Shown here piece after piece: positions 13,799 through 40,744 of a DNA stretch of 52,762 bases. This stretch comes from Candidatus Parcubacteria bacterium (GTDB lineage Bacteria; Patescibacteriota; Minisyncoccia; UBA9983), in assembly GCA_003599625.1 (NCBI GenBank), contig QZIU01000009.1, positions 1 to 52,762 of the forward strand, given 5' to 3'. A program made the position numbers and the translations under genes. The notes beneath the pieces were generated by a model, which was not told the origin of the DNA, searched no databases, and saw only the letters and a program-made list of their open reading frames with translations. Each line of letters opens with the position of its first letter. Positions within the stretch are counted from its first letter, which is position 1.

Positions 13799-14872
13799 CT
13801 ACTGGAATTGGGTGATGCGGATGCCGAGGAGGCGGATCAGTTTCTTTTTGGGATTCTTGCGGCTGTCGAGATATGGCATCAAAAGTTTTAGCGCTTCTTT
13901 TTTGAGAACTCCCTGAGAGTTTGCAGGTTCTTTCATCGTGTGGGCAGATGTCTTGGTTTCAAAATCGGAAAAACGGACAGTGATGCCAACGGTTTTAAAG
14001 CTTTTAAATTCGCTTCTTTTGAATCTTTCAAAAACTCTTTCGGCGGCTTTGGCCAGCCGCTCGAAAAGAAAATTACTCTCTAAGGTATCCTTCATGAAAG
14101 TTTCCTGCTCGCCTATGGATTTGGCCTCATATTCCGTCACCAGTTCCGTTTCCCCGATTCCGCGGGCTTTGTAATACAAATCGATTCCCCATTTGCCCAA
14201 TATCTCCTCGAGTTGATCTTTGGAAAATTTCTTGATGTCTTTTATTTTTTCTATCCCTTTTCCCTTGAGCAAGATCTCCGTCTTGGGACCAACGCCGGGC
14301 AAAGCCCTTGCCGGCATTTCCGCCAAAAAATCTTCGGCGTCTTTTTCTTCCACAATGGTAAGTCCGTCCGGCTTTTGGAATCCGGAGGCGATCTTGGCGA
14401 TAAGCTTATTGGGTCCGATTCCCACCGAAGCGGTGAGATTTTCTTTTTCGCGAATTTCCGCTTTTATCTTCTGGCAAACTTCTTTGGCTTTTTCGTAAGA
14501 ACCGGCATGAGAAAGATCAAAGTAGGCTTCGTCAATACTCGCCTCTTCCACGATTGGAGAATGCTTCCCGACTATTTCCATTATTTTCCTTGAAACGGCC
14601 CCGTACTTCGCGAAATCAACCTCGAGAAATATGACACCGGGCTTGCCTTCCTTCTTGGCTTTTTCCGAAAGCTTCCAGGCCTTGCTTATTGGCGTGGCGG
14701 AAAATATGCCATACTTTCTGGCCGCGTAATTTGCCGTTGATACGACTCCCCTCCCAGTGCCTCCCGCCGGATCGGAACCTACAACTATGGGCATCCCTTT
14801 AATACCCGGCCTATCACGTTCCTCAACGGCCGCAAAAAAAGCATCCATATCTATGTGCGCGATTATCTTCAT
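13799..14872 (-). CDS. dinB: DNA polymerase IV (Y family)
   Basis: HIDMDAFFAAVE, STANYAAR, SIDEAYFD, KIASGFQKPDG; little-finger domain ending IRLLGI. Confidence 0.95.
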   Translation of the reverse strand: MKIIAHIDMDAFFAAVEERDRPGIKGMPIVVGSDPAGGTGRGVVSTANYAARKYGIFSATPISKAWKLSEKAKKEGKPGVIFLEVDFAKYGAVSRKIMEIVGKHSPIVEEASIDEAYFDLSHAGSYEKAKEVCQKIKAEIREKENLTASVGIGPNKLIAKIASGFQKPDGLTIVEEKDAEDFLAEMPARALPGVGPKTEILLKGKGIEKIKDIKKFSKDQLEEILGKWGIDLYYKARGIGETELVTEYEAKSIGEQETFMKDTLESNFLFERLAKAAERVFERFKRSEFKSFKTVGITVRFSDFETKTSAHTMKEPANSQGVLKKEALKLLMPYLDSRKNPKKKLIRLLGIRITQFQ

Positions 14873-18728: not shown

Positions 18729-18772
18729 TTTTTTGAATGGATCGTTTCAATATCTAGTCGCTATAGTAATTA

Positions 18773-18851
18773 AATTTTCAATTTCTAATTTTTATTAAAT
18801 TTCTAATTAGATAATTTTCAAACATCGAAAATTTAATAGAAATTGAAAATT
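18773..18851. repeat. AT-rich heptamer-like inverted repeat
   Basis: aattttcaatttcta (18773-18787)/tagaaattgaaaatt (18837-18851), perfect 15 bp. Confidence 0.75.
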
Positions 18852-22763: not shown

Positions 22764-23759
22764 CTATTCGCTTATCAAATTCTTAATTATCTTTATCATT
22801 GTCTCTTTTTCTTTCGGCTGGCTTTCGGCGACAAGGAGGGCCAAGGCCACAAGCGCGTTGTCATTTATCTTTCTATCGCCGGATTTTTTGAAGAGATAAT
22901 TTGTCCTGTCTAAGAAATAAACAAACAAAAAAGCGGCGGAACGTTTGTTTCCGTCAGAAAATGGATGATCTTTAATGATGAAATACAAAAGGTGTGAAGC
23001 TTTGTCTTCCACTGTCGGATAAAGTTCTTTCCCGCCGAAGGACTGGTAGAGCCCATTGATGATTCCTTCAAAAGCGCCTCCTCTTTCCTGCCCGAAAAGA
23101 TCTCCCGCTTCCATTTTCGTTATCAATTCTTTTTTTAGCTCGGTTATTATCTTAATCGAGTCGTCATATTTCAAAACGAATTTTGTTTTGCCACCTTTTG
23201 GTTCCTTCAACTGGCCTTTATCATATTGCTCAAGCAGCGATAAAGTCTTGGCATAATTGGAGAGCAAATGCAAAATTTCTCCCGCTTGACCGGATAATAA
23301 TTCTCTTTGAGACTTTTCTTGTAAGAATGATATGGCGGTCTGGAGTTCTTGGAATTTTTCGCGGGCTTCCAGAAGTCGTTTTTCGTTGATTGTATAGCCT
23401 TTCAATAAGTGATTTTTCAGTGTTTTTGTAGCCCAGATACGAAACTGAGTCGCTCTTTTTGAATTAACGCGGTAACCAGTAGAAATAATCATATCCAAAT
23501 TATAGATATTCATTTTTCTGATTTTTCCATCAGCGGCAACCTGTTCCAAAATGGAACAGGTTGAATTTCCATCCAATTCGCCGGTTTTATAAATGTTTTT
23601 GATATGTTTTACTATCGCTGGACGATTAACATCAAATAGTACGGCTATCTGATGAGCGTCAAGCCATATCGTTTCATTTTCAAACCGCACCTTCAACTCG
23701 ACCTCGTTTTTTGAGGTTTTGTAGATTATTATTTCCCCTTTTGAAAAATTGTTCTTCAT
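22764..23759 (-). CDS. RhuM-like N-domain fused to a Fic/Doc domain
   Basis: YNLDMIISTGYRVNSKRATQFRIWAT (RhuM-like) and HPFSDGNKR (Fic/Doc). Start reset to ATG 23759. Confidence 0.88.
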   Translation of the reverse strand: MKNNFSKGEIIIYKTSKNEVELKVRFENETIWLDAHQIAVLFDVNRPAIVKHIKNIYKTGELDGNSTCSILEQVAADGKIRKMNIYNLDMIISTGYRVNSKRATQFRIWATKTLKNHLLKGYTINEKRLLEAREKFQELQTAISFLQEKSQRELLSGQAGEILHLLSNYAKTLSLLEQYDKGQLKEPKGGKTKFVLKYDDSIKIITELKKELITKMEAGDLFGQERGGAFEGIINGLYQSFGGKELYPTVEDKASHLLYFIIKDHPFSDGNKRSAAFLFVYFLDRTNYLFKKSGDRKINDNALVALALLVAESQPKEKETMIKIIKNLISE

Positions 23760-23800
23760 ATTCTTAACTAGATAATACCACAAAATTAACGCCCGCAAAT

Positions 23801-28106: not shown

Positions 28107-28703
28107 TCATAACAAATTGAATCGCCAAAGATAATCTCTGCAATGTTTGGCGTAATCAATACCGATCCGCTTTGAGGCTTCTATCTTTTTAGGCGATATT
28201 TTTAACCCTGAATCTTCTATCCATAAATCGCCTGTTTCAACATCCGATCCGTTAAATTTCTTATCTATGCCGAAATATCGGCAAACCCGCCCCGGCCCGT
28301 TTATTCCAACCTGGCGGCCTGACTGCCGACGAGGCAGGGTTGTAATAGTTTTCCATAAGTTGTTAACAGCTTTAGTCGAACTTTCATCGCTAAAAGACAT
28401 TACTCCCCTGATAAGCACAGCGGAAGGATATTCATCCATCTCGGTCACAATGTTGAGACAAAAGTACATCCCGTAGATCATATACACGTAGACCGTCCCC
28501 GCCTCTTTGTACAAAGTTTCCGTTCTTTTCGTCCTCCCCTTCGAAGCATGGCAAGCCAAATCGTCTTCGCCGCGATAAGCCTCCGTCTCAATTATAACGC
28601 CTCTCAAAATCTTATCGCCGTTTTTGACAACCAAAAATTTGCCAAGCAGATTCTTGGCGACTTTGATCGTGTTATCTTCAAAAAAAGACCTATTGAGTTT
28701 CAT
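28107..28703 (-). CDS. DNA-3-methyladenine glycosylase (MPG/AAG family)
   Basis: IIETEAY.G..D.ACH, YVYMIYGMY.CLNIV, NGPG, RIGIDYA. Confidence 0.92.
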   Translation of the reverse strand: MKLNRSFFEDNTIKVAKNLLGKFLVVKNGDKILRGVIIETEAYRGEDDLACHASKGRTKRTETLYKEAGTVYVYMIYGMYFCLNIVTEMDEYPSAVLIRGVMSFSDESSTKAVNNLWKTITTLPRRQSGRQVGINGPGRVCRYFGIDKKFNGSDVETGDLWIEDSGLKISPKKIEASKRIGIDYAKHCRDYLWRFNLL

Positions 28704-29746: not shown

Positions 29747-30601
29747 TCATCGATCATAACCCAGCGTGTTCAAGGATTCTTTTACAGACACATGCTCGAT
29801 TATTTGCTGAAGTTCATCATGAAAAACTCCATTACTTATAATATGTCCTTCTATGATACCATCATTAATACCATCATCATAGACCAAAGGCTTTCCAAGA
29901 ATATCAGTAGCCTTTCCGCCAGCTTCTTCCACCAGTAAATGCATTGCTGCTGTTTCTAAAGGCTTATTGCCGGGAAAAATCGTGGCATGGATTTGTCCGG
30001 AAGCCACTAACCCGCCAAAATAGGCAATAGATAGAGGACTCATCCAGGTAGCGCCTTGTTTCATTAGCTCATTTGAAACCAGGTGAAGATGATATGGCGC
30101 CTTATTCCAATAAGCAATGCAAACAATGCTTTTTTTAAGCTCCTTATGGCCGGAAACTTGGATTTTTTTTCCGTTTAGGAAAGCGCCCTTATCTTTTTCC
30201 GCCCACCACATCCGTTTAAGAAACGGGTCGTAAATGACGGCCAAGAAAGGAGACCCCCCAACAACCAAGCTTATGCAGAATGTGCTTTCCGGGATACCCC
30301 CAAGAAAAGCCGATGTGCCATCGAGCGGATCGCAGATAATTTTGAAATCACTTCCCCTTACTTCTCTGCTTCCCTCCTCGGAGTATACGCTTATCTCAGG
30401 AAAATCTCTTTTAAAGCGGGACAAGACCAAATCATTTATTTTCTGGTCGATTTCCGTTACTGGCGTGCCATCGTCTTTCCATTCCTTTTTTAGCCCTTGG
30501 GTAAAACCTTTTAATATCATTTTTCCCGCCTCTTCCGCCAATTTTATAAGATATCCATAACTTGGAATACAGATTATCTTTTCCATATTCTTTTTCTTCA
30601 C
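29747..30601 (-). CDS. Inositol monophosphatase family protein
   Basis: SEEG, DPLDGT, EEAGG. GTG start with GGAGG Shine-Dalgarno. Confidence 0.9.
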   Translation of the reverse strand: MKKKNMEKIICIPSYGYLIKLAEEAGKMILKGFTQGLKKEWKDDGTPVTEIDQKINDLVLSRFKRDFPEISVYSEEGSREVRGSDFKIICDPLDGTSAFLGGIPESTFCISLVVGGSPFLAVIYDPFLKRMWWAEKDKGAFLNGKKIQVSGHKELKKSIVCIAYWNKAPYHLHLVSNELMKQGATWMSPLSIAYFGGLVASGQIHATIFPGNKPLETAAMHLLVEEAGGKATDILGKPLVYDDGINDGIIEGHIISNGVFHDELQQIIEHVSVKESLNTLGYDR

Positions 30602-30708
30602 AACAATTCTCCTCCAAAAAAGCTTTTGAGATATAAATTAAGTTTTCAAAGAATTTTTTCCAGGTTACAATTTTGTTGACAAAATGTCAAATTTTATTCA
30701 TATAAAAG

Positions 30709-30744
30709 TTTACACCTCCTAAGCTATAGTAGAAGAAGTGTAAA
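30709..30744. repeat. 36-bp tripartite palindrome (copy 5)
   Basis: tttacac-N7-gctatagt-N7-gtgtaaa. Confidence 0.7.
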
Positions 30745-30790
30745 TAATTTTAAGGAGAATCTTATCAATTTTATTCTTACACTTTTATCT

Positions 30791-31966
30791 CTACGCTTTC
30801 CCCGACGCTTTTTTGACGGCGGAGGCGACTGCTTTGGCCACCCGCTTGTCCAAGGCCGAAGGAATGATGTTGTCCGTCTTCAATTCCATCTTCGGAACCA
30901 GTTTGGCTATGGCGTAAGCGGCAGACAGCTTCATCTCATCGGTGATCGCTTTGGCCCGCGCGTCCAGCGCGCCCCTGAAGATTCCGGGGAAAGCCAGAGC
31001 GTTATTTATCTGATTCGGATAATCCGACCGACCCGTTCCAAAAATAAATATCTTTGCTTTCTTCGCTTCCTCATAGCTGATCTCCGGATCGGGATTGGCC
31101 ATGGCAAAAACGATCGGCTTATCGGCCATTTTCTCCACCATCTGGCCGGTCAAAACATTTCCTGCGGAAACACCGACAAAAACATCCGCGCCGTTCAAAG
31201 CCTCAGACAACCCGCCCTTTATTTTCCCTGGATTCGTAAGCGCAGCCATCTTTTCCTTATATTCATTCATTGACTCCTTTCTTCCCTCAAAAATAATCCC
31301 GGTTTGATCCAACATCAAAATATTCTTGCCGGAAATGCCCGCCCTCATAAACAGGTTGGCGCAAGCCATTGCCGCCGCCCCGGCTCCGTTTATAACCATT
31401 TTGATTTGCCCGATATTTTTTTTGGCCAATTTTAGCGCATTGATCAAAGCCGTCAAAGCCACAATAGCGGTACCATGCTGATCATCATGGAAAACGGGTA
31501 TATCCAGCTCTTTCTTAAGTCTTTCTTCGATTACAAAACATCTTGGAGCGCAAATATCTTCCAGATTTATACCGCCGAATCCAACGGCAATATTTTTTAC
31601 CGTCCTCACTATCTCCTCTTCATCTTGCGTAGCAAGGCAAATCGGAAAAGCGTCCACTCCGGCCAACTCCTTGAACAAAAGCGCTTTCCCTTCCATCACC
31701 GGCATCCCGCCTTCCGGCCCGATATTACCAAGACCGAGAACGGCCGAACCGTCGGTCACCACGGCTACCGTATTGGCTTTGATAGTATGCGTCCACATCG
31801 CTTCTTTATTTCCAGCAACCCATTTGGAAACAGCCGCCACCCCCGGCGTATAAGCCAAAGAAAGGTCTTTTTTGTCTTTTACTTTTATTTTCGGAACGAC
31901 CTCGATCTTTCCTTTAAGTTTTTTATGTAACTTGAGCGATTGTTCTCCGAAGGTGTTTTTTTTCAT
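30791..31966 (-). CDS. NAD(P)-dependent malic enzyme (stand-alone, no PTA fusion)
   Basis: LAYTPGVA, GLGNIGP, MEGKALLFK, HDDQHGTA, GAGAA, NQINNALAFPG. Confidence 0.95.
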   Translation of the reverse strand: MKKNTFGEQSLKLHKKLKGKIEVVPKIKVKDKKDLSLAYTPGVAAVSKWVAGNKEAMWTHTIKANTVAVVTDGSAVLGLGNIGPEGGMPVMEGKALLFKELAGVDAFPICLATQDEEEIVRTVKNIAVGFGGINLEDICAPRCFVIEERLKKELDIPVFHDDQHGTAIVALTALINALKLAKKNIGQIKMVINGAGAAAMACANLFMRAGISGKNILMLDQTGIIFEGRKESMNEYKEKMAALTNPGKIKGGLSEALNGADVFVGVSAGNVLTGQMVEKMADKPIVFAMANPDPEISYEEAKKAKIFIFGTGRSDYPNQINNALAFPGIFRGALDARAKAITDEMKLSAAYAIAKLVPKMELKTDNIIPSALDKRVAKAVASAVKKASGKA

Positions 31967-32023
31967 TTCTAAATTCTAGCAATTTTTTTAGCCCAAAACA
32001 ATTCCTTTAGAGACTTTCAAATG

Positions 32024-32059
32024 TTTACACTTTTGTTGCTATGGCTTAGAAAGTGTAAA
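32024..32059. repeat. 36-bp tripartite palindrome (copy 6)
   Basis: tttacac-N7-gctatggc-N7-gtgtaaa; the stem extends to 10 bp. Confidence 0.7.
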
Positions 32060-32075
32060 ATTATTATTAATAAAA

Positions 32076-33059
32076 TTACGAAACGGCGATCTCCAACATC
32101 CCTTCCTTGTCGTTCCATTTTATGGACGTGTCGAAGGCGCGGCAGAGGAGTTCCATTTTTGAGACGATTTCTTCGGCTTCTTGGCCTTTGGCCAGCTTGG
32201 CCTGGAAGTCGGCTATTTTTACCGGATAAAGCAATATTCTTTTTATTTCAGCATTGTGTCCGGTTTCAACGATAAAAATGAACGATTGATCATTCCTCTC
32301 TATCTCATCCACGGCGTAATCATTAATGAAGTCTCCGGCGCTATAGATAATGGGTTTCTTTTTGTAGATTTCTATACCTCGAAAAACATGGGGAGAATGT
32401 CCGAAAATGATGTCGGCTCCCGCGTCTATGCAGCACTTGGCAAAGGGAATATGACACCTCTCCGGCAGGTGCCCCCAATTCGGCCCCCAATGACAGGAGA
32501 CGACCAAAATGTCGCAGCTCTTTTTTAGAATCCTTATTTCTCTGAAAAATTTTCGAGCCTCGATACCCCCTTCGACTATCGGGACGTAAAATATTCCGGG
32601 CTTGTTTTCTTCCGCCGCCCATTCTGGTTCATTGTCGGTCAAGGCGAGAAAACCGATCTTAAGTTCGGCAATTTCGGATATTGCCATCTCTTTGGCTTTA
32701 CTCAGGTTTTTTCCCGCCCCCGCGCGGCAAATACCGTTCTTGTCCAAAATAGCAATCGTTTCTTTCAACGCTTCTTCGCCATAATCGAAAGCGTGATTGT
32801 TAGCTAACGAAACGGCGTTTATTCCGGCCGCCTTTAAAACTTCGATATTTTCCGGATCAGAACGAAAATGAAACGCCTTTTTCGTTATTTCCCACGGAGC
32901 GCCCTTATCCGATACGACGCATTCCAAATTGCACGCCCGCCAATCGGCCGTTTTAAAAATCGGCAAAGTGTCGCCCCACGGATAGCCCGGGGATCTTGCC
33001 TTTAAAATATCGTTTACCACCCGACCCAGCATTACATCGCCGACAAAAAGAAGTCGCAT
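32076..33059 (-). CDS. CapA-family metallophosphoesterase
   Basis: GDVMLGR, NLEC, LANNH..DYG, HWG, GHSPH, YSAGDF. Confidence 0.9.
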   Translation of the reverse strand: MRLLFVGDVMLGRVVNDILKARSPGYPWGDTLPIFKTADWRACNLECVVSDKGAPWEITKKAFHFRSDPENIEVLKAAGINAVSLANNHAFDYGEEALKETIAILDKNGICRAGAGKNLSKAKEMAISEIAELKIGFLALTDNEPEWAAEENKPGIFYVPIVEGGIEARKFFREIRILKKSCDILVVSCHWGPNWGHLPERCHIPFAKCCIDAGADIIFGHSPHVFRGIEIYKKKPIIYSAGDFINDYAVDEIERNDQSFIFIVETGHNAEIKRILLYPVKIADFQAKLAKGQEAEEIVSKMELLCRAFDTSIKWNDKEGMLEIAVS

Positions 33060-33071
33060 AATTATTTTAAC

Positions 33072-35585
33072 TCATCCGATCCTCAATAATCTTTGCCGTT
33101 CTATTCTTTCGATTGCCGCGGAAATATCATTTTTCTTTTCCAGAATCTCTCTCCACGGATCTCCTTTCTTTTCTATCCTCTGGCGGATGTTGAAAATATT
33201 GAAATCGGAAGGTTTTATTTTTCCACTCAACTCTTTCCAGACCAAAGGAGTCGAGACGGGCGCGCCGTCAAGCGGCCTGACGGAATAAGGGGCCGCGACC
33301 GTCTGGCCTTTTACATTCTGCAAATAATCGAGATAAACTCTGCCCCTTCTTCTGTCGGGAAGCCTCTCGAGGCTCGTGATCTCGGGAATCCGGCGGTAAG
33401 TCATATTGGCGATAATCTCGGCAAAATTCCTGCCTTGCTCATAAGTGTAATTTTCTTTCAGCGGGATGTAGATGTGAAGGCCTTTGGCTCCGGAAGTTTT
33501 GCACAATCCGAATATTCGCAGCTCATCCATGACCTTCTTCACCTCAAGAGCCACGGCCAAAACTTTGTCAAAATCCACCTCAAGCGGATCAAGATCAATA
33601 ACGACATGATCGGGACTGTCCGGAGAAAAATATCTGGAAAGCCATGGATGAATTTCGATGCAACCAAGATTAGCCATGTAGATAAGAGTCGCCCTGTTCT
33701 GGCACAGAAGATAGGAGATTTTCTTCTTTTCCGATTCAGCCCGAATATCGACGGTCTCAAGCCAGTCGGGAGAAATGCCCTTGTCTATGTCTTTGTGATA
33801 AAACGCTGGCTTTTCTATCCCCTCCGGAAATCGATGCATGGTTTCCGGTCTGTCTTTGATATAAGGCAGAATATGCGGCGCGATCTGATCGTAATAATTT
33901 ACCAGATCTTTTTTGGTGTACCCGTCTTTCGGCCAGTAAACTTTATCAAGATTGGTAAGAATGAGTTTCTTGCCATCGATCATAATCTCTTCTTCTTTTT
34001 CTTTAAGGCGATAATACCTGGGTCGCGGACGAGGCTCGCCGCCAATTAGCATAGAAAATTCTCTGACAACTTCCTTCGGGTCCTTATCTTCTCTTAATCC
34101 AATAAAAACTGGCTGCCTCATAACGCCATCCTTTGTCCATTCCCGAAATTTGATCTCGCATACGAGCTGCGGCTCAAGCCAAACTGCCGGTTCGTTTGTT
34201 TGCGGCGTTTCGATAAACGGAGAGTCCTCTCTTTTAAATCCGCTCATCTTTTCATAAAGTTCTTCTGCCGTTTTAGAATCAAAACCGGTCCCAACATGCC
34301 CGATGTATCTTAAATTATTATTCTCGTAAACCCCGAGGACTAGAGCGCCGAAATATCCTTGCCCCGCTCTTGGCAAAGTAAAACCGGCAATGACCGCTTC
34401 CTGTCTTTGCTCCGTTTTTATTTTTAACCAATCCGCGCTTCTTGCTCCCGACCGATAAGGACTGTTGAGATTCTTTGCCATCATGCCCTCCAAACCCTGC
34501 CGCCGGATCGCTTCAAAAAATCGCTGTCCTTTTTCTTCGACATAATCGGAAAGTTTAACGGAGGCAAGATCGTACTTGGAAAACAACAACCGCAAAAGTT
34601 CCCTCCTGTCTTTCAGGGCAAGTCTCCTGACATCTCGCCCGTTTAAAAAAAGCAGATCGAAAACAAAATATATCACTTGACCCTTCCGGTCGCGGCGATA
34701 ATCCTGAAGCGTCTGGAAGTCCGGTTTTCCTTCGTCATTCAATGCCACGATCTCTCCGTCCAAAACAACTCCTTCTTTAATTACTTCAAAGGAGGAAGCA
34801 ACCGTCGGATAATCTTCGTTCAACAACACATTTTTGCGGGAGTATAGTTTCGCTTTGCCGCCGGAAACGAATGCCAACGCCCGGTAACCATCCCGCTTCG
34901 GCTCGAATATCCAGTCTTTCTTGTCGAAGGCTCTATCGGCCAACTTGGCAAACATCGGCTTGACGCTTGCCGGTTCGGGAGGGCTTTCTTCGGAATTTGC
35001 CAAACCGACCTCCTCCGTTTCCACTTCTTCCACCGTTCTTCCGCTCTTTACCGATCTTTCATCAAACTTAATATTTTCATCGGCGTACTCGTCTCTTTTC
35101 TTGATCATCAGCCAGGCATTGTCTCCCCCGCGAGCCATTTTTGCCAGGGCGAATTCTCCTTGCAATTTTTTCCCCGCTAAAATTATCGTCAATCGGCCTT
35201 TATTTATGCTGTCCAAAACTTTCTCGTCAAAAGTTTTTCCCTTGCCGCTTTTTATTTCATAAGTTCCCTCATCCCATACTATCACCGGGCCAGCCCCGTA
35301 ATTTCCCTCCGGTATCACCCCTTCGAATGAGCGGTAATCGAGCGGATGATCTTCCACCATCATTGCCAACCTCTTGTCCGCCGGATTCATGGAGGGGCCT
35401 TTCGGCACCGCCCAGCTCTTCAAAACGCCGTCCGCTTCTATTCTGAAATCATAATGAAGCCTGGAAGCGGAATGTTTTTGGATCACGAAATGATATTCAT
35501 CCGCGACTTTCGGGCGGACAGGCTTTGCCGCCGGTTCGCGCGTTTTTTTGAAATTCCTTTTCCTGCCGTATTCTTCAAGGATCAT
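33072..35585 (-). CDS. ligD: DNA ligase D (phosphoesterase-ligase-polymerase)
   Basis: QKHSASRLHYDFR (PE), EPKRDGYR (ligase KxDG), DLDP and KTSGAKGLH (PrimPol). Confidence 0.96.
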   Translation of the reverse strand: MILEEYGRKRNFKKTREPAAKPVRPKVADEYHFVIQKHSASRLHYDFRIEADGVLKSWAVPKGPSMNPADKRLAMMVEDHPLDYRSFEGVIPEGNYGAGPVIVWDEGTYEIKSGKGKTFDEKVLDSINKGRLTIILAGKKLQGEFALAKMARGGDNAWLMIKKRDEYADENIKFDERSVKSGRTVEEVETEEVGLANSEESPPEPASVKPMFAKLADRAFDKKDWIFEPKRDGYRALAFVSGGKAKLYSRKNVLLNEDYPTVASSFEVIKEGVVLDGEIVALNDEGKPDFQTLQDYRRDRKGQVIYFVFDLLFLNGRDVRRLALKDRRELLRLLFSKYDLASVKLSDYVEEKGQRFFEAIRRQGLEGMMAKNLNSPYRSGARSADWLKIKTEQRQEAVIAGFTLPRAGQGYFGALVLGVYENNNLRYIGHVGTGFDSKTAEELYEKMSGFKREDSPFIETPQTNEPAVWLEPQLVCEIKFREWTKDGVMRQPVFIGLREDKDPKEVVREFSMLIGGEPRPRPRYYRLKEKEEEIMIDGKKLILTNLDKVYWPKDGYTKKDLVNYYDQIAPHILPYIKDRPETMHRFPEGIEKPAFYHKDIDKGISPDWLETVDIRAESEKKKISYLLCQNRATLIYMANLGCIEIHPWLSRYFSPDSPDHVVIDLDPLEVDFDKVLAVALEVKKVMDELRIFGLCKTSGAKGLHIYIPLKENYTYEQGRNFAEIIANMTYRRIPEITSLERLPDRRRGRVYLDYLQNVKGQTVAAPYSVRPLDGAPVSTPLVWKELSGKIKPSDFNIFNIRQRIEKKGDPWREILEKKNDISAAIERIERQRLLRIG

Positions 35586-35609
35586 TTTTGATTATTCCGC
35601 CGCTAGCTG

Positions 35610-36386
35610 TTAAGGCGAAGGTTTCGTCTTCTCCAAACTGGCCTTCAACATCTTAAGGAGATCTTCGGCCCTGGTGGGAACGGGCAATTCTTTCGAGGCG
35701 GGAACGATCATTTCTCCTTTGGCTTTCTTCTCGATTATCTCTCTCAGCTCGCCGGAATAAGTGTCATGATATTTTTCCGGTTCGAACGGCCCGGATAGAT
35801 TTTCTATAAGTTTTAACGCCGCTTCGACCTCGCTTTCGATAAATTCTTCTTTCGGCAGCTTGAGAGAAGCGGGGTCTCTTATCTGATCGGAGTATCTTAA
35901 TTTGTGCAAGATCAACAAATTAGCGTCCGGCTTGATGACGCACAAGATTTCTTTATTCCGCAAAACGAATTTTCCGATAGCCGCTTTCTTCGACCTCTTC
36001 AGGGCTTCTCTCATCAAGGTGTAAGCTTTTTCCGCCCCCTTGTCCGGCTCAAGATAATACGGCTTCTCGTAATATTTGCTTTCCACTTCGTGATCGTCCG
36101 CGAAATTCGATATATCTATCGTCTTTGTCTTTCGCACATCCACACTGTCGAAATCTTCCCGAGTAAGAATGACGTAATTCCCTTTCTTGTACTCAAAACC
36201 TTTGACAAGATCTTCATAAGAAACTTCCCGCCCGTCTTTGGAGCAAATCCTCGCGTATCTGATCGGATACGAATCCTCGCGGTGAAGCAAATGAAATTGA
36301 AACTCCCTTTCTTCGGCAGCGCTGTATAATTTAATAGGTATATTGACAAGGCCAAAACTTATCGATCCGCTCCATATGTCACGCAT
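35610..36386 (-). CDS. ku: Ku protein (NHEJ)
   Basis: W.GSISFGLVNIPIKLYSA, KGFEY, KPYYL. Start reset to ATG 36386. Confidence 0.96.
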   Translation of the reverse strand: MRDIWSGSISFGLVNIPIKLYSAAEEREFQFHLLHREDSYPIRYARICSKDGREVSYEDLVKGFEYKKGNYVILTREDFDSVDVRKTKTIDISNFADDHEVESKYYEKPYYLEPDKGAEKAYTLMREALKRSKKAAIGKFVLRNKEILCVIKPDANLLILHKLRYSDQIRDPASLKLPKEEFIESEVEAALKLIENLSGPFEPEKYHDTYSGELREIIEKKAKGEMIVPASKELPVPTRAEDLLKMLKASLEKTKPSP

Positions 36387-36511
36387 ATTCAATACCCGCC
36401 CCCGAAGCGGATACAAAAGAGGTAACTCCTCGCGGAAAATATTGGTATTATTTTAATATATTATTCTGATTCCACCGCATAACCCTGATAAAGGGGGGGA
36501 TAGCAAAGAAA

Positions 36512-39936: not shown

Positions 39937-40350
39937 CTATCTAGTATTATCTACTATCTTTATGAATTCCTCTATGTCTTTTATGTCTCCCTGCAATATC
40001 TGATAAACAAGATCATAATTTACTTTCTCGTAGTCGTGAGCAACTATGTTTCTAAACCCCGTCATGCCGATCATTTTTTCCGTAAGGTTTTGGTCTATAA
40101 CCCCTTCTTCGTTAAGAATATGAAAACTTTCGCTAAGTGTGGATGGTTTGCGAAATTTTTTATAAGCGATCACCGCCTCTGCCAAATCTATAGTGGCTTG
40201 CGACACCAAATAAAGATATCTCTCTACCGCTCCTCTTATATCAATGTTGCTTTCAATCTCTTCCCTGGAATATTTTTTATATCTATCCAAAATTTTAAGA
40301 TATTTTCTTATGGAGCTTATTTTGTTTTCTATAACAACGGGATTGCTCAT
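39937..40350 (-). CDS. hepT: HEPN ribonuclease toxin (DUF86/HepT)
   Basis: RX4HXY motif RNIVAHDY. Confidence 0.88.
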   Translation of the reverse strand: MSNPVVIENKISSIRKYLKILDRYKKYSREEIESNIDIRGAVERYLYLVSQATIDLAEAVIAYKKFRKPSTLSESFHILNEEGVIDQNLTEKMIGMTGFRNIVAHDYEKVNYDLVYQILQGDIKDIEEFIKIVDNTR

Positions 40351-40351
40351 A

Positions 40352-40744
40352 TTAGGCTTTTGTTAAGTTATATTTTGATAAGATAGTTCTAAAATCAAAA
40401 TATTCATTCAAAATCTTTGGCTCGACTAAAATCTTATACGGTTCCAGCTCGTAAATCAGCCTTCCTTCTTTAATAATATTATACTTTACTTCCGGGCTTT
40501 TGATCAGGTCGAGAATAACTATGTCCAATTTGTCTGTCTTCAGCTCTCTGCTTATCTTATCTTGCAAAGAAAATTTGACTTTGAAAATTTTGCCGGTATC
40601 CCGCTCATCAAGATAAAAAGCAAAGTCGTAATCACTGAGCGGCCCGCTGTCGCCCCTGGCTTTTGAGCCGAAGAAATAGGCCAGTTTTATTTCCGGGTAA
40701 GATTTGATTATATTGACTATTTTTTCAATTTTATCATTTTCCAT
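40352..40744 (-). CDS. mntA: Minimal nucleotidyltransferase antitoxin
   Basis: GSX10DXD (GSKARGDSGPLSDYD); directly upstream of hepT. Confidence 0.88.
   Translation of the reverse strand: MENDKIEKIVNIIKSYPEIKLAYFFGSKARGDSGPLSDYDFAFYLDERDTGKIFKVKFSLQDKISRELKTDKLDIVILDLIKSPEVKYNIIKEGRLIYELEPYKILVEPKILNEYFDFRTILSKYNLTKA

Follow-up and report, generated by a model that had tools for sequence, protein, structure and literature searches.

Two 36-bp palindromes around a malic enzyme gene of a Parcubacteria bacterium belong to a site family associated with genes for small PaaX-like proteins

A 52,762-bp stretch of DNA from Candidatus Parcubacteria bacterium (contig QZIU01000009.1 of assembly GCA_003599625.1, hereafter the window, to the whole of which all coordinates refer) carries a malic enzyme gene placed between two 36-bp palindromes, P1 and P2. 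We found that these palindromes belong to a family of sites which, in Patescibacteria (the candidate phyla radiation, CPR), brackets genes for small proteins related to PaaX, the repressor of phenylacetate catabolism. We consider it rather likely, from the comparisons described below, that P1 and P2 serve as operators for a PaaX-like regulator whose gene lies elsewhere in the genome, with the malic enzyme gene, the operon of inositol monophosphatase (IMPase) and methylpurine glycosylase (MPG), or both, as targets. The elements concerned are the following:

30709-30744, no strand assigned: P1, a 36-bp dyad TTTACAC-CTCCTAA-GCTATAGT-AGAAGAA-GTGTAAA, reading TTTACACTTCTTCTACTATAGCTTAGGAGGTGTAAA on the minus strand; 46 nt (30745-30790) separate it from the malic stop codon, which precedes it, and 18 nt from the predicted -35 of the IMPase operon, which follows.
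32024-32059, no strand assigned: P2, a 36-bp dyad TTTACAC-TTTTGTT-GCTATGGC-TTAGAAA-GTGTAAA; it lies 16 nt past the stop codon of a capA-like gene and 57 nt (31967-32023) before the malic ATG.
30791-31966, minus strand: the gene between them, encoding an NAD(P)-dependent malic enzyme of 391 amino acids (Pfam PF00390, malic, and PF03949, Malic_M).

The pattern TTTACAC-N22-GTGTAAA occurs exactly twice in the window, as P1 and P2, and the count stays at two, for an expectation of 0.08, when two mismatches are permitted. The two copies share the pattern TTTACAC-N7-GCTATRGY-N7-GTGTAAA; when a centre GCYATRGY is added to the arms, the chance expectation falls to 0.00 and shuffled sequence gives no match. 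The heptamers TTTACAC and GTGTAAA are found three times each, two of each within these sites; whatever their sequence, perfect 7-N22-7 palindromes number only seven in 52.8 kb. A generic scan of the window for the same architecture returned P1, P2 and only two or three doubtful sites. The observation is thus real and non-random, and what a sequence-only reading of this DNA had described (two palindromes of one architecture around the malic gene, the distances of 46 and 57 nt, the IMPase and capA genes as neighbours) was borne out, the distances being exact for the open reading frame (ORF) 30791-31966 and both neighbours lying on the minus strand. That reading also held that the arms are identical while the N7 spacers differ, of which the first part stands; the spacers differ only in direct comparison. 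Since the plus strand of P1 matches the reverse complement of P2 at 29/36 positions and P2 itself at 24/36, the two palindromes are mutually inverted, and to judge from this alignment their spacers are related throughout and not arbitrary.

The family was delineated by a scan with the pattern TTTACAC-N8-CNATNG-N8-GTGTAAA. Among 185,579 genomes, one per species, 12 loci were found, five of them in Patescibacteria (Vogelbacteria, Zambryskibacteria, Saccharibacteria, plus two sites in one metagenome-assembled genome); metagenomes gave 23 loci and viral contigs none. Matches outside the CPR (Bacteroidales, Sulfurovum, Methanobrevibacter, Bacillota, as well as L025, beside an IS200-type transposase) were unrelated palindromes or coding sequence and were set aside. 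The CPR matches are near-perfect 36-bp palindromes whose interiors vary and whose centres read, for instance, CGATCG or CTATAG. The site adjoins, in five independent lineages, a gene for a protein of 180-240 amino acids, the products being 25-43% identical to one another. It lies 6-82 nt past the stop codon of this PaaX-like gene at four loci (L023, L029, L030 and L041) and 27 nt before its ATG at a fifth (L010), and inspection revealed a second site on the other side of each of the five genes.

The same picture emerged independently of the pattern, when homologues of the L030 protein were collected and their loci fetched by protein only (L043, L045, L049, L051, L052 with two paralogues, and L053): every PaaX-like gene was bracketed by 36-bp sites with the layout 7-N7-8-N7-7. 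Their arms vary (TTAACAC, TTAGCAC/TTATCAC, GGAGACA, CTTCTCC, TGATATG, ATGGACA, ATTCCCA, CTTGCGA). By a simple criterion, which asked for the centre NCKRYMGN, for arms complementary at 5/7 positions or more and for a location within 90 nt of the gene, a site was present at 19 of the 23 available flanks of 12 PaaX-like genes, while the remaining ~130 kb gave about 12 other hits, mostly poor, with none in L001, L004 and L006. The four flanks missed (upstream in L023 and L043, downstream in L045, and the second paralogue of L052, whose register is shifted by one) carry degenerate or shifted copies that can be seen by eye. As to whether other genes are bracketed like the malic gene, a point raised in the sequence-only reading, the PaaX-like genes of many Patescibacteria provide the answer.

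Position statistics were drawn from 16 sites that had not been chosen by pattern. C16 and G21 are invariant, G15/C22 are present in 14/16 and A18/T19 in 15/16, so that the conserved family centre is GC-N-AT-N-GC. T10 is found in 16/16, and the site is thereby oriented with respect to the gene. In 12-15 of the 16, arm positions 3-7 are complementary to 30-34, through all four pair types; in the interior, pairing of positions 8-14 with 23-29 is seen in about half of the sites only. The two sites of a given gene mostly have matching arms, and the arms of paralogues differ. In the relatives, upstream copies abut or overlap TATAAT-like boxes or -10/-35 regions, and in L045, L049 and L052b (the second paralogue of L052) they end 5-10 nt before a TATAAT box, which is the classical position of an autorepressor.

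P1 and P2 find their nearest relative in this family. P1 on the minus strand and P2 on the plus strand each match the site 3' of the L030 PaaX-like gene at 31/36 positions, including the asymmetric GCTATAGCTTAGGA interior, and P2 matches the L030 upstream site at 30/36; L030 comes from the same sample as L001, which holds the closest relative of the malic enzyme. A comparable link is seen in sample H43 (L014, L018, L041), where orphan sites have the same 9-bp arms (TTTACACTA...TAGTGTAAA) as the sites of a PaaX-like gene. This class of sites is widespread in the ultra-small CPR bacteria and apparently undescribed so far.

Several further observations concern the family. One site, TTTACACTCTTCTTACGATCGTAAAAATAGTGTAAT (L016:34-69), lies within an apparent RNase HII coding frame, where its 36 bp correspond to 12 codons, and a second copy is found 5.3 kb off, between SMC and RNase R; in L053 the downstream site of the PaaX-like gene also precedes RNase HII. 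Two sites with TTTACAC and TTTAGCA arms are 45 bp apart 3' of pyrF-pyrE (L027:4899-5015), with a third (ACTATAC arms, 2220-2255) upstream of the operon, an arrangement which may represent another bracketed unit or a PaaX-like gene at the contig end. Many PaaX-like genes and sites are on very short contigs or a few hundred bases from contig ends, and assemblies appear to break there, through palindromes and repeats or through population heterogeneity. Predicting the arms from the recognition-helix sequence gave no clear rule by eye: close paralogues share ..CAC arms, yet distant proteins also have TTTACAC, partly because the scans selected for these arms.

The proteins associated with the sites match Pfam PaaX_M ("PaaX central Cas2-like domain") with E values of 1e-15 to 1e-23 and, weakly, TIGR02277 PaaX over the winged-helix and middle regions. 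With about 185 amino acids and PaaX_M as their only Pfam domain, the CPR proteins are without the C-terminal domain of PaaX, and the invariant D/E residues of the Cas2-like domain are kept in the family. In an AlphaFold model (alignment of 30 sequences, pLDDT 79), the chain forms a winged helix and then a beta-alpha-beta-beta-alpha-beta domain. A fold search with this model ranked E. coli PaaX (8a39) first with an E value of 7e-5, Jannaschia PaaX-like 3l09 next, then PadR/MarR winged helices and Cas2. Searching the PDB with a single PaaX-like sequence gave no match, and with a profile only marginal hits (E about 0.04) to winged-helix, Cas2 and PaaX entries, including the archaeal centromere-binding AspA. 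The family, a very large one, comprises 1,308 clusters (50% identity) for E <= 1e-30 and 3,810 for E <= 1e-10, and single genomes hold several paralogues in many different neighbourhoods. Within the library searched, no paper names PaaX jointly with Patescibacteria or Cas2.

How the two palindromes are placed with respect to the genes and promoters of the window bears on what they may do, and the following features are involved:

29747-30601, minus strand: IMPase family gene, the first downstream of P1, followed by a gene for an unknown protein of 326 amino acids and by the MPG glycosylase gene; a possible second target.
32076-33059, minus strand: PGA_cap/CapA-like gene, the neighbour on the P2 side.
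30662-30690, minus strand: sigma-70-type promoter predicted from the sequence for the IMPase-unknown-MPG operon, TTGACA (30690-30685), 17 nt, TAACCT (30667-30662).
31973-31981, minus strand: extended -10 TGCTAGAAT predicted from the sequence for the malic gene, ending 6 nt before the ATG.
30777-30790, plus strand: partial left half-site TTACACTTTTATCT, directly 3' of the malic stop codon, 82% identical to P2 positions 2-18; a weak match, with 3 mismatches in 14.
30665-30678, plus strand: partial left half-site TTACAATTTTGTTG, matching P2 positions 2-15 at 13/14 and overlapping the spacer and -10 of the predicted IMPase promoter.

Relative to the predicted start sites, P1 lies at about -89 to -54 of the IMPase operon and P2 at about -93 to -58 of the malic gene, so that both would be upstream of the core promoters and not over them. 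Each is just 3' of the stop codon of the preceding gene, like the downstream sites of the PaaX-like genes. The half-site at 30665-30678 is the only match with at most one mismatch in the window apart from P2 itself, with the caution that this stretch is in part promoter sequence conserved in the relative L004. No Shine-Dalgarno sequence precedes the malic gene (31964-31981), and the predicted extended -10, ending 6 nt before the ATG, suggests a leaderless or near-leaderless malic mRNA; in L004 and L001, TATAAT- or TAGAAT-like boxes are found immediately before the malic start. A 15-bp palindrome, TTGACAAAATGTCAA (30676-30690), spans the -35 of the predicted IMPase promoter, is kept in L004 as TTGACAATCTGTCAA, and may be a separate operator for another factor. 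A possible weaker third site of the 36-bp class occupies 18746-18781, 17 nt upstream of the mreB ATG, and reads TTGAAAA-TTTAATT-ACTATAGC-GACTAGA-TATTGAA on the minus strand; its centre ACTATAGC is identical to that of P1 on the minus strand, its arms are only 5/7 complementary, and about two chance hits are expected at such stringency.

The window looks like an ordinary CPR chromosome. Pfam searches place LigD, Ku and MPG genes near the malic locus. The window also holds a set of DNA-damage genes unusual for a reduced genome, namely Ku and a three-domain LigD for non-homologous end joining (NHEJ), the MPG glycosylase, a Y-family polymerase and a glyoxalase/bleomycin-resistance-like protein, together with a HepT/MNT toxin-antitoxin pair and a RhuM-Fic protein (for the whole set: 13799-14872, 28107-28703, 33072-36416, 39937-40744 and 22764-23798).

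The malic enzyme has homologues of 65-83% identity in Paceibacterota, Zambryskibacteria and similar CPR bacteria, and the host is a Patescibacterium; an exact-protein look-up found the protein itself on no other contig, and a plasmid search gave only distant malic enzyme homology. The palindrome was not found in the seven loci with malic enzymes 77-83% identical to that of the window (L001-L007), even with three arm mismatches. In four of them (L004-L007, malic enzyme 77% identical) the malic gene is followed by one inserted nuclease-like gene and then, as in the window, by the genes for IMPase (65% identity), an unknown protein (313 aa, 60%) and MPG (64%). The IMPase promoter region can be aligned between the window and L004 (TTGACA-17-TAACCT versus TTGACA-17-TACATT); in L004 the promoter follows the preceding stop codon directly, with no palindrome upstream, and in the window P1 precedes the -35 by 18 nt. 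Synteny across relatives is only partial, as the context in L001 is mnmA-malic-rplJ; the neighbours of the malic gene thus differ among L001, L003/L004 and the window.

From the sites, the family and its association with PaaX-like genes, which are observed, we infer binding by a PaaX-like protein, the direction of regulation and looping. The regulator would be a protein of about 185 amino acids with an N-terminal winged helix and a Cas2-like PaaX_M dimerisation domain, encoded elsewhere in the Patescibacterial genome. As a dimer it would touch both 7-bp inverted arms, whose centres are 29 bp apart, and the GC-N-AT-N-GC centre. In the relatives one site is at or over the promoter of the regulator gene itself and the second just 3' of its stop codon. 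In the window the same pair brackets the malic gene, with P2 upstream of the malic promoter and P1 between the malic stop codon and the IMPase-MPG promoter, and the outcome would be co-ordinated control of the malic enzyme and/or the IMPase operon, either through a protein bridge between P1 and P2 (a loop) or through each site acting on its own neighbouring promoter or on read-through. By analogy, the site-gene-site layout makes the bridging mode attractive as a possibility. The sequence-only reading had proposed, as one of two alternatives, looping of the gene by a repressor bound at both ends: the operator half of this proposal is supported by the class flanking PaaX-like genes on both sides and by the long-spaced, PaaX-type layout, while the loop itself is something we infer only.

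Several points weigh against the palindromes being PaaX-type operators. The cognate protein is assumed: no PaaX-like ORF was found in the window at E < 10 by hmmsearch of all six-frame ORFs. Simple steric repression does not fit, because P1 and P2 are outside the predicted core promoters. A promoter-operator role also makes little sense for orphan sites lying between convergent genes (SMC/RNase R in L016, MiaA/DivIC in L017) or in a reading frame (L016, 34-69), and no promoter that the downstream sites of the PaaX-like genes might control is obvious. Perfect 36-bp palindromes, which a spacer-tolerant dimer does not require, occur among the sites (L017, L039), and in two genes (L010, L052b) the upstream and downstream arms differ.

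One explanation places the function at the RNA level: the transcribed palindromes would form 3'-end structures (weak intrinsic terminators, stabilisers or processing sites) for the capA and malic genes and, in relatives, for the PaaX-like genes. P1 and P2 do fold on either strand, with -8.1 to -12.8 kcal/mol and z from -3 to -4.6, sense-strand P1 has two extra G-U pairs and then CUUUUAUAU, many family sites are 6-20 nt past a stop codon or between convergent genes, and some members are perfect hairpins with compensatory interiors. The stems, however, are A/U-rich, in place of the G+C-rich stem and direct U-tract of an intrinsic terminator; they end in AAA on both strands with no proper U-tract after them, only P1 on the minus strand having the short CUUUUAUAU tail, and a terminator scan flagged neither palindrome. 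The interior pairing in only about half of the unselected sites leaves mostly a 7-bp A/U-rich stem with a 22-nt loop, arm mismatches show no G-U bias, separate canonical terminators stand beside the sites in L014, L016 and L018, and Rfam has no family there, with just a sub-threshold SAM-III hit within the malic ORF. The upstream copies overlap promoters, where an RNA role is unlikely, and altogether we regard this explanation as doubtful. Somewhat less probable again, in our view, is that the PaaX-like proteins are small nucleoid- or partition-type winged-helix proteins, for which the palindromes would be chromosome-architecture or insulator sites marking the borders of transcription units and not regulating particular promoters. 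The occurrence of sites at unit borders whatever the orientation of the neighbours, the weak profile matches to AspA and PadR-type winged helices and the very large size of the family would agree with it; the PDB sequence matches are marginal, though, the fold search ranks PaaX first, and the upstream sites overlap -10/-35 regions as those of autoregulated repressors do.

The other alternative of the sequence-only reading, a gene cassette between recombination sites, fared worse. In its general form it would have a small mobile module end at the palindromes or be targeted to them, perhaps through action of the protein with the Cas2-like domain on these sites, and would make the malic gene a captured or invertible cassette. 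The mutual inversion of P1 and P2 around one gene, the varying neighbours of the malic gene, the site-gene-site modules scattered over many neighbourhoods with several paralogues per genome and the retained D/E residues all agree with such a module, and so does one locus in which a segment of this kind is present or absent. This segment (L052:9135-10734; JBGGHD010000095.1 of GCA_041643135.1) comprises, over 1.5 kb, a 210-aa membrane ORF and a PaaX-like gene with both 36-bp sites, and is bounded by a 56-nt direct repeat, 93% identical, which duplicates the 3' end of a class-II aminoacyl-tRNA synthetase gene; in the syntenic L049 it is absent and the two neighbouring genes are only 26 nt apart. 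It looks like an att-type insertion or an indel of a regulator module, and indicates that such modules can be gained or lost as blocks, but the repeat is outside the 36-bp sites, which are not the junctions. Moreover, Pfam scans found no recombinase, integrase or transposase among the genes of the window, no direct repeats or target duplications were found around the P2-P1 unit, full copies number only two in 52 kb, with none in viral contigs, and the arms do not fit attC cores. L030 and L045-48 (63% protein identity) share the adk-map-PaaX position, which indicates vertical descent, and the malic-IMPase-unknown-MPG synteny of L004-L007 is kept without any palindrome, a situation which the sequence-only reading itself had named as refuting a cassette. 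We therefore hold mobility of P1 and P2 to be improbable, and the malic gene is probably a regulated chromosomal gene and not a mobile cassette. Even more remote is the wider conjecture that palindromes and bracketed winged helix-turn-helix/Cas2-like genes form a self-contained, occasionally mobile module, in which the Cas2-like domain would act on hairpin or cruciform sites and the malic gene would occupy a slot created or captured by it; if true, Patescibacteria would possess a small cassette system of a new kind, distantly reminiscent of the relation between Cas2 and CRISPR repeats (a 36-bp palindromic repeat beside a Cas2-fold gene).

Regulation by a PaaX-like protein is the reading we retain. 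To our knowledge, almost nothing is known on transcriptional regulation in Patescibacteria, in whose reduced genomes few regulators can be recognised. The present comparisons tie the very large family of mini PaaX-like proteins to a defined 36-bp site architecture with a recurrent site-gene-site layout, and two concrete targets are predicted, the malic enzyme gene and the IMPase-MPG operon; if the binding is true, regulons of uncultured Patescibacteria could be read from sequence.

CIRCE, the NrdR box, LexA boxes, dif and parS are not known to match the palindromes in spacing or sequence, and a sigma-70 promoter within the palindrome, with TTTACA as -35, was rejected since no copy has a consistent -10 at 16-18 nt. 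Integron attC cassettes resemble the present arrangement in having imperfect palindromes on both sides of a single gene. P1 and P2 differ from them in being without RYYYAAC/GTTRRRY cores, without intI (no tyrosine recombinase among the Pfam-scanned ORFs of the window), without array or attI, and in their length of 36 bp against 57-141 bp for attC; the malic gene, in addition, has its own promoter-like sequence. As in invertible segments of the Hin/Gin type the two sites are mutually inverted, but no invertase gene is present in the 52 kb. REP/BIME elements and the hairpins of IS200/IS605-type elements are likewise short intergenic palindromes near gene ends, sometimes in inverted pairs, beside a gene for a small ferredoxin-like fold. 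Here, in contrast, the copies are very few per stretch (two full ones in 52 kb), no RAYT/TnpA (Y1) gene and no GTAG-type tetranucleotide are found, and the arms differ between modules while the centre is conserved. The loops of lac O1/O2/O3, gal OE/OI and deo resemble our case in that one operator is present twice, at a distance of hundreds of bp and with a gene or promoter in the interval; P1 and P2 are mutually inverted, stand 1.3 kb from each other outside the predicted core promoters, and their looping is only postulated.

The closest comparison is with PaaX itself. E. coli PaaX recognises the sequence TGATTC(N27)GAATCA and is a steric repressor of its own promoter (review PMC9493321). In common with this operator, known from E. 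coli and Pseudomonas, the CPR sites consist of inverted repeats with a long spacer (6-N27-6 there, 7-N22-7 here) and occur at the promoter of the regulator's own gene, in the relatives though not in the window; the proteins share the winged helix and the Cas2-like middle domain, PaaX being the top structural match of the CPR model. The PaaX box TGATTC...GAATCA is absent here, its place being taken by the arms TTTACAC/GTGTAAA and, in paralogues, by others. Unlike the PaaX operator, the CPR sites have a conserved central GC-N-AT-N-GC and a T-tract, and as a rule a further site follows the stop codon; the proteins, of about 185 amino acids, do not have the effector domain found at the C-terminus of PaaX, there are no paa genes in the vicinity, and the putative targets are the malic enzyme and IMPase. 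On these likenesses and differences, it is plausible that the system represents, in CPR bacteria, a variant of the long-spaced PaaX-type operator with a conserved centre and a paired arrangement around genes.

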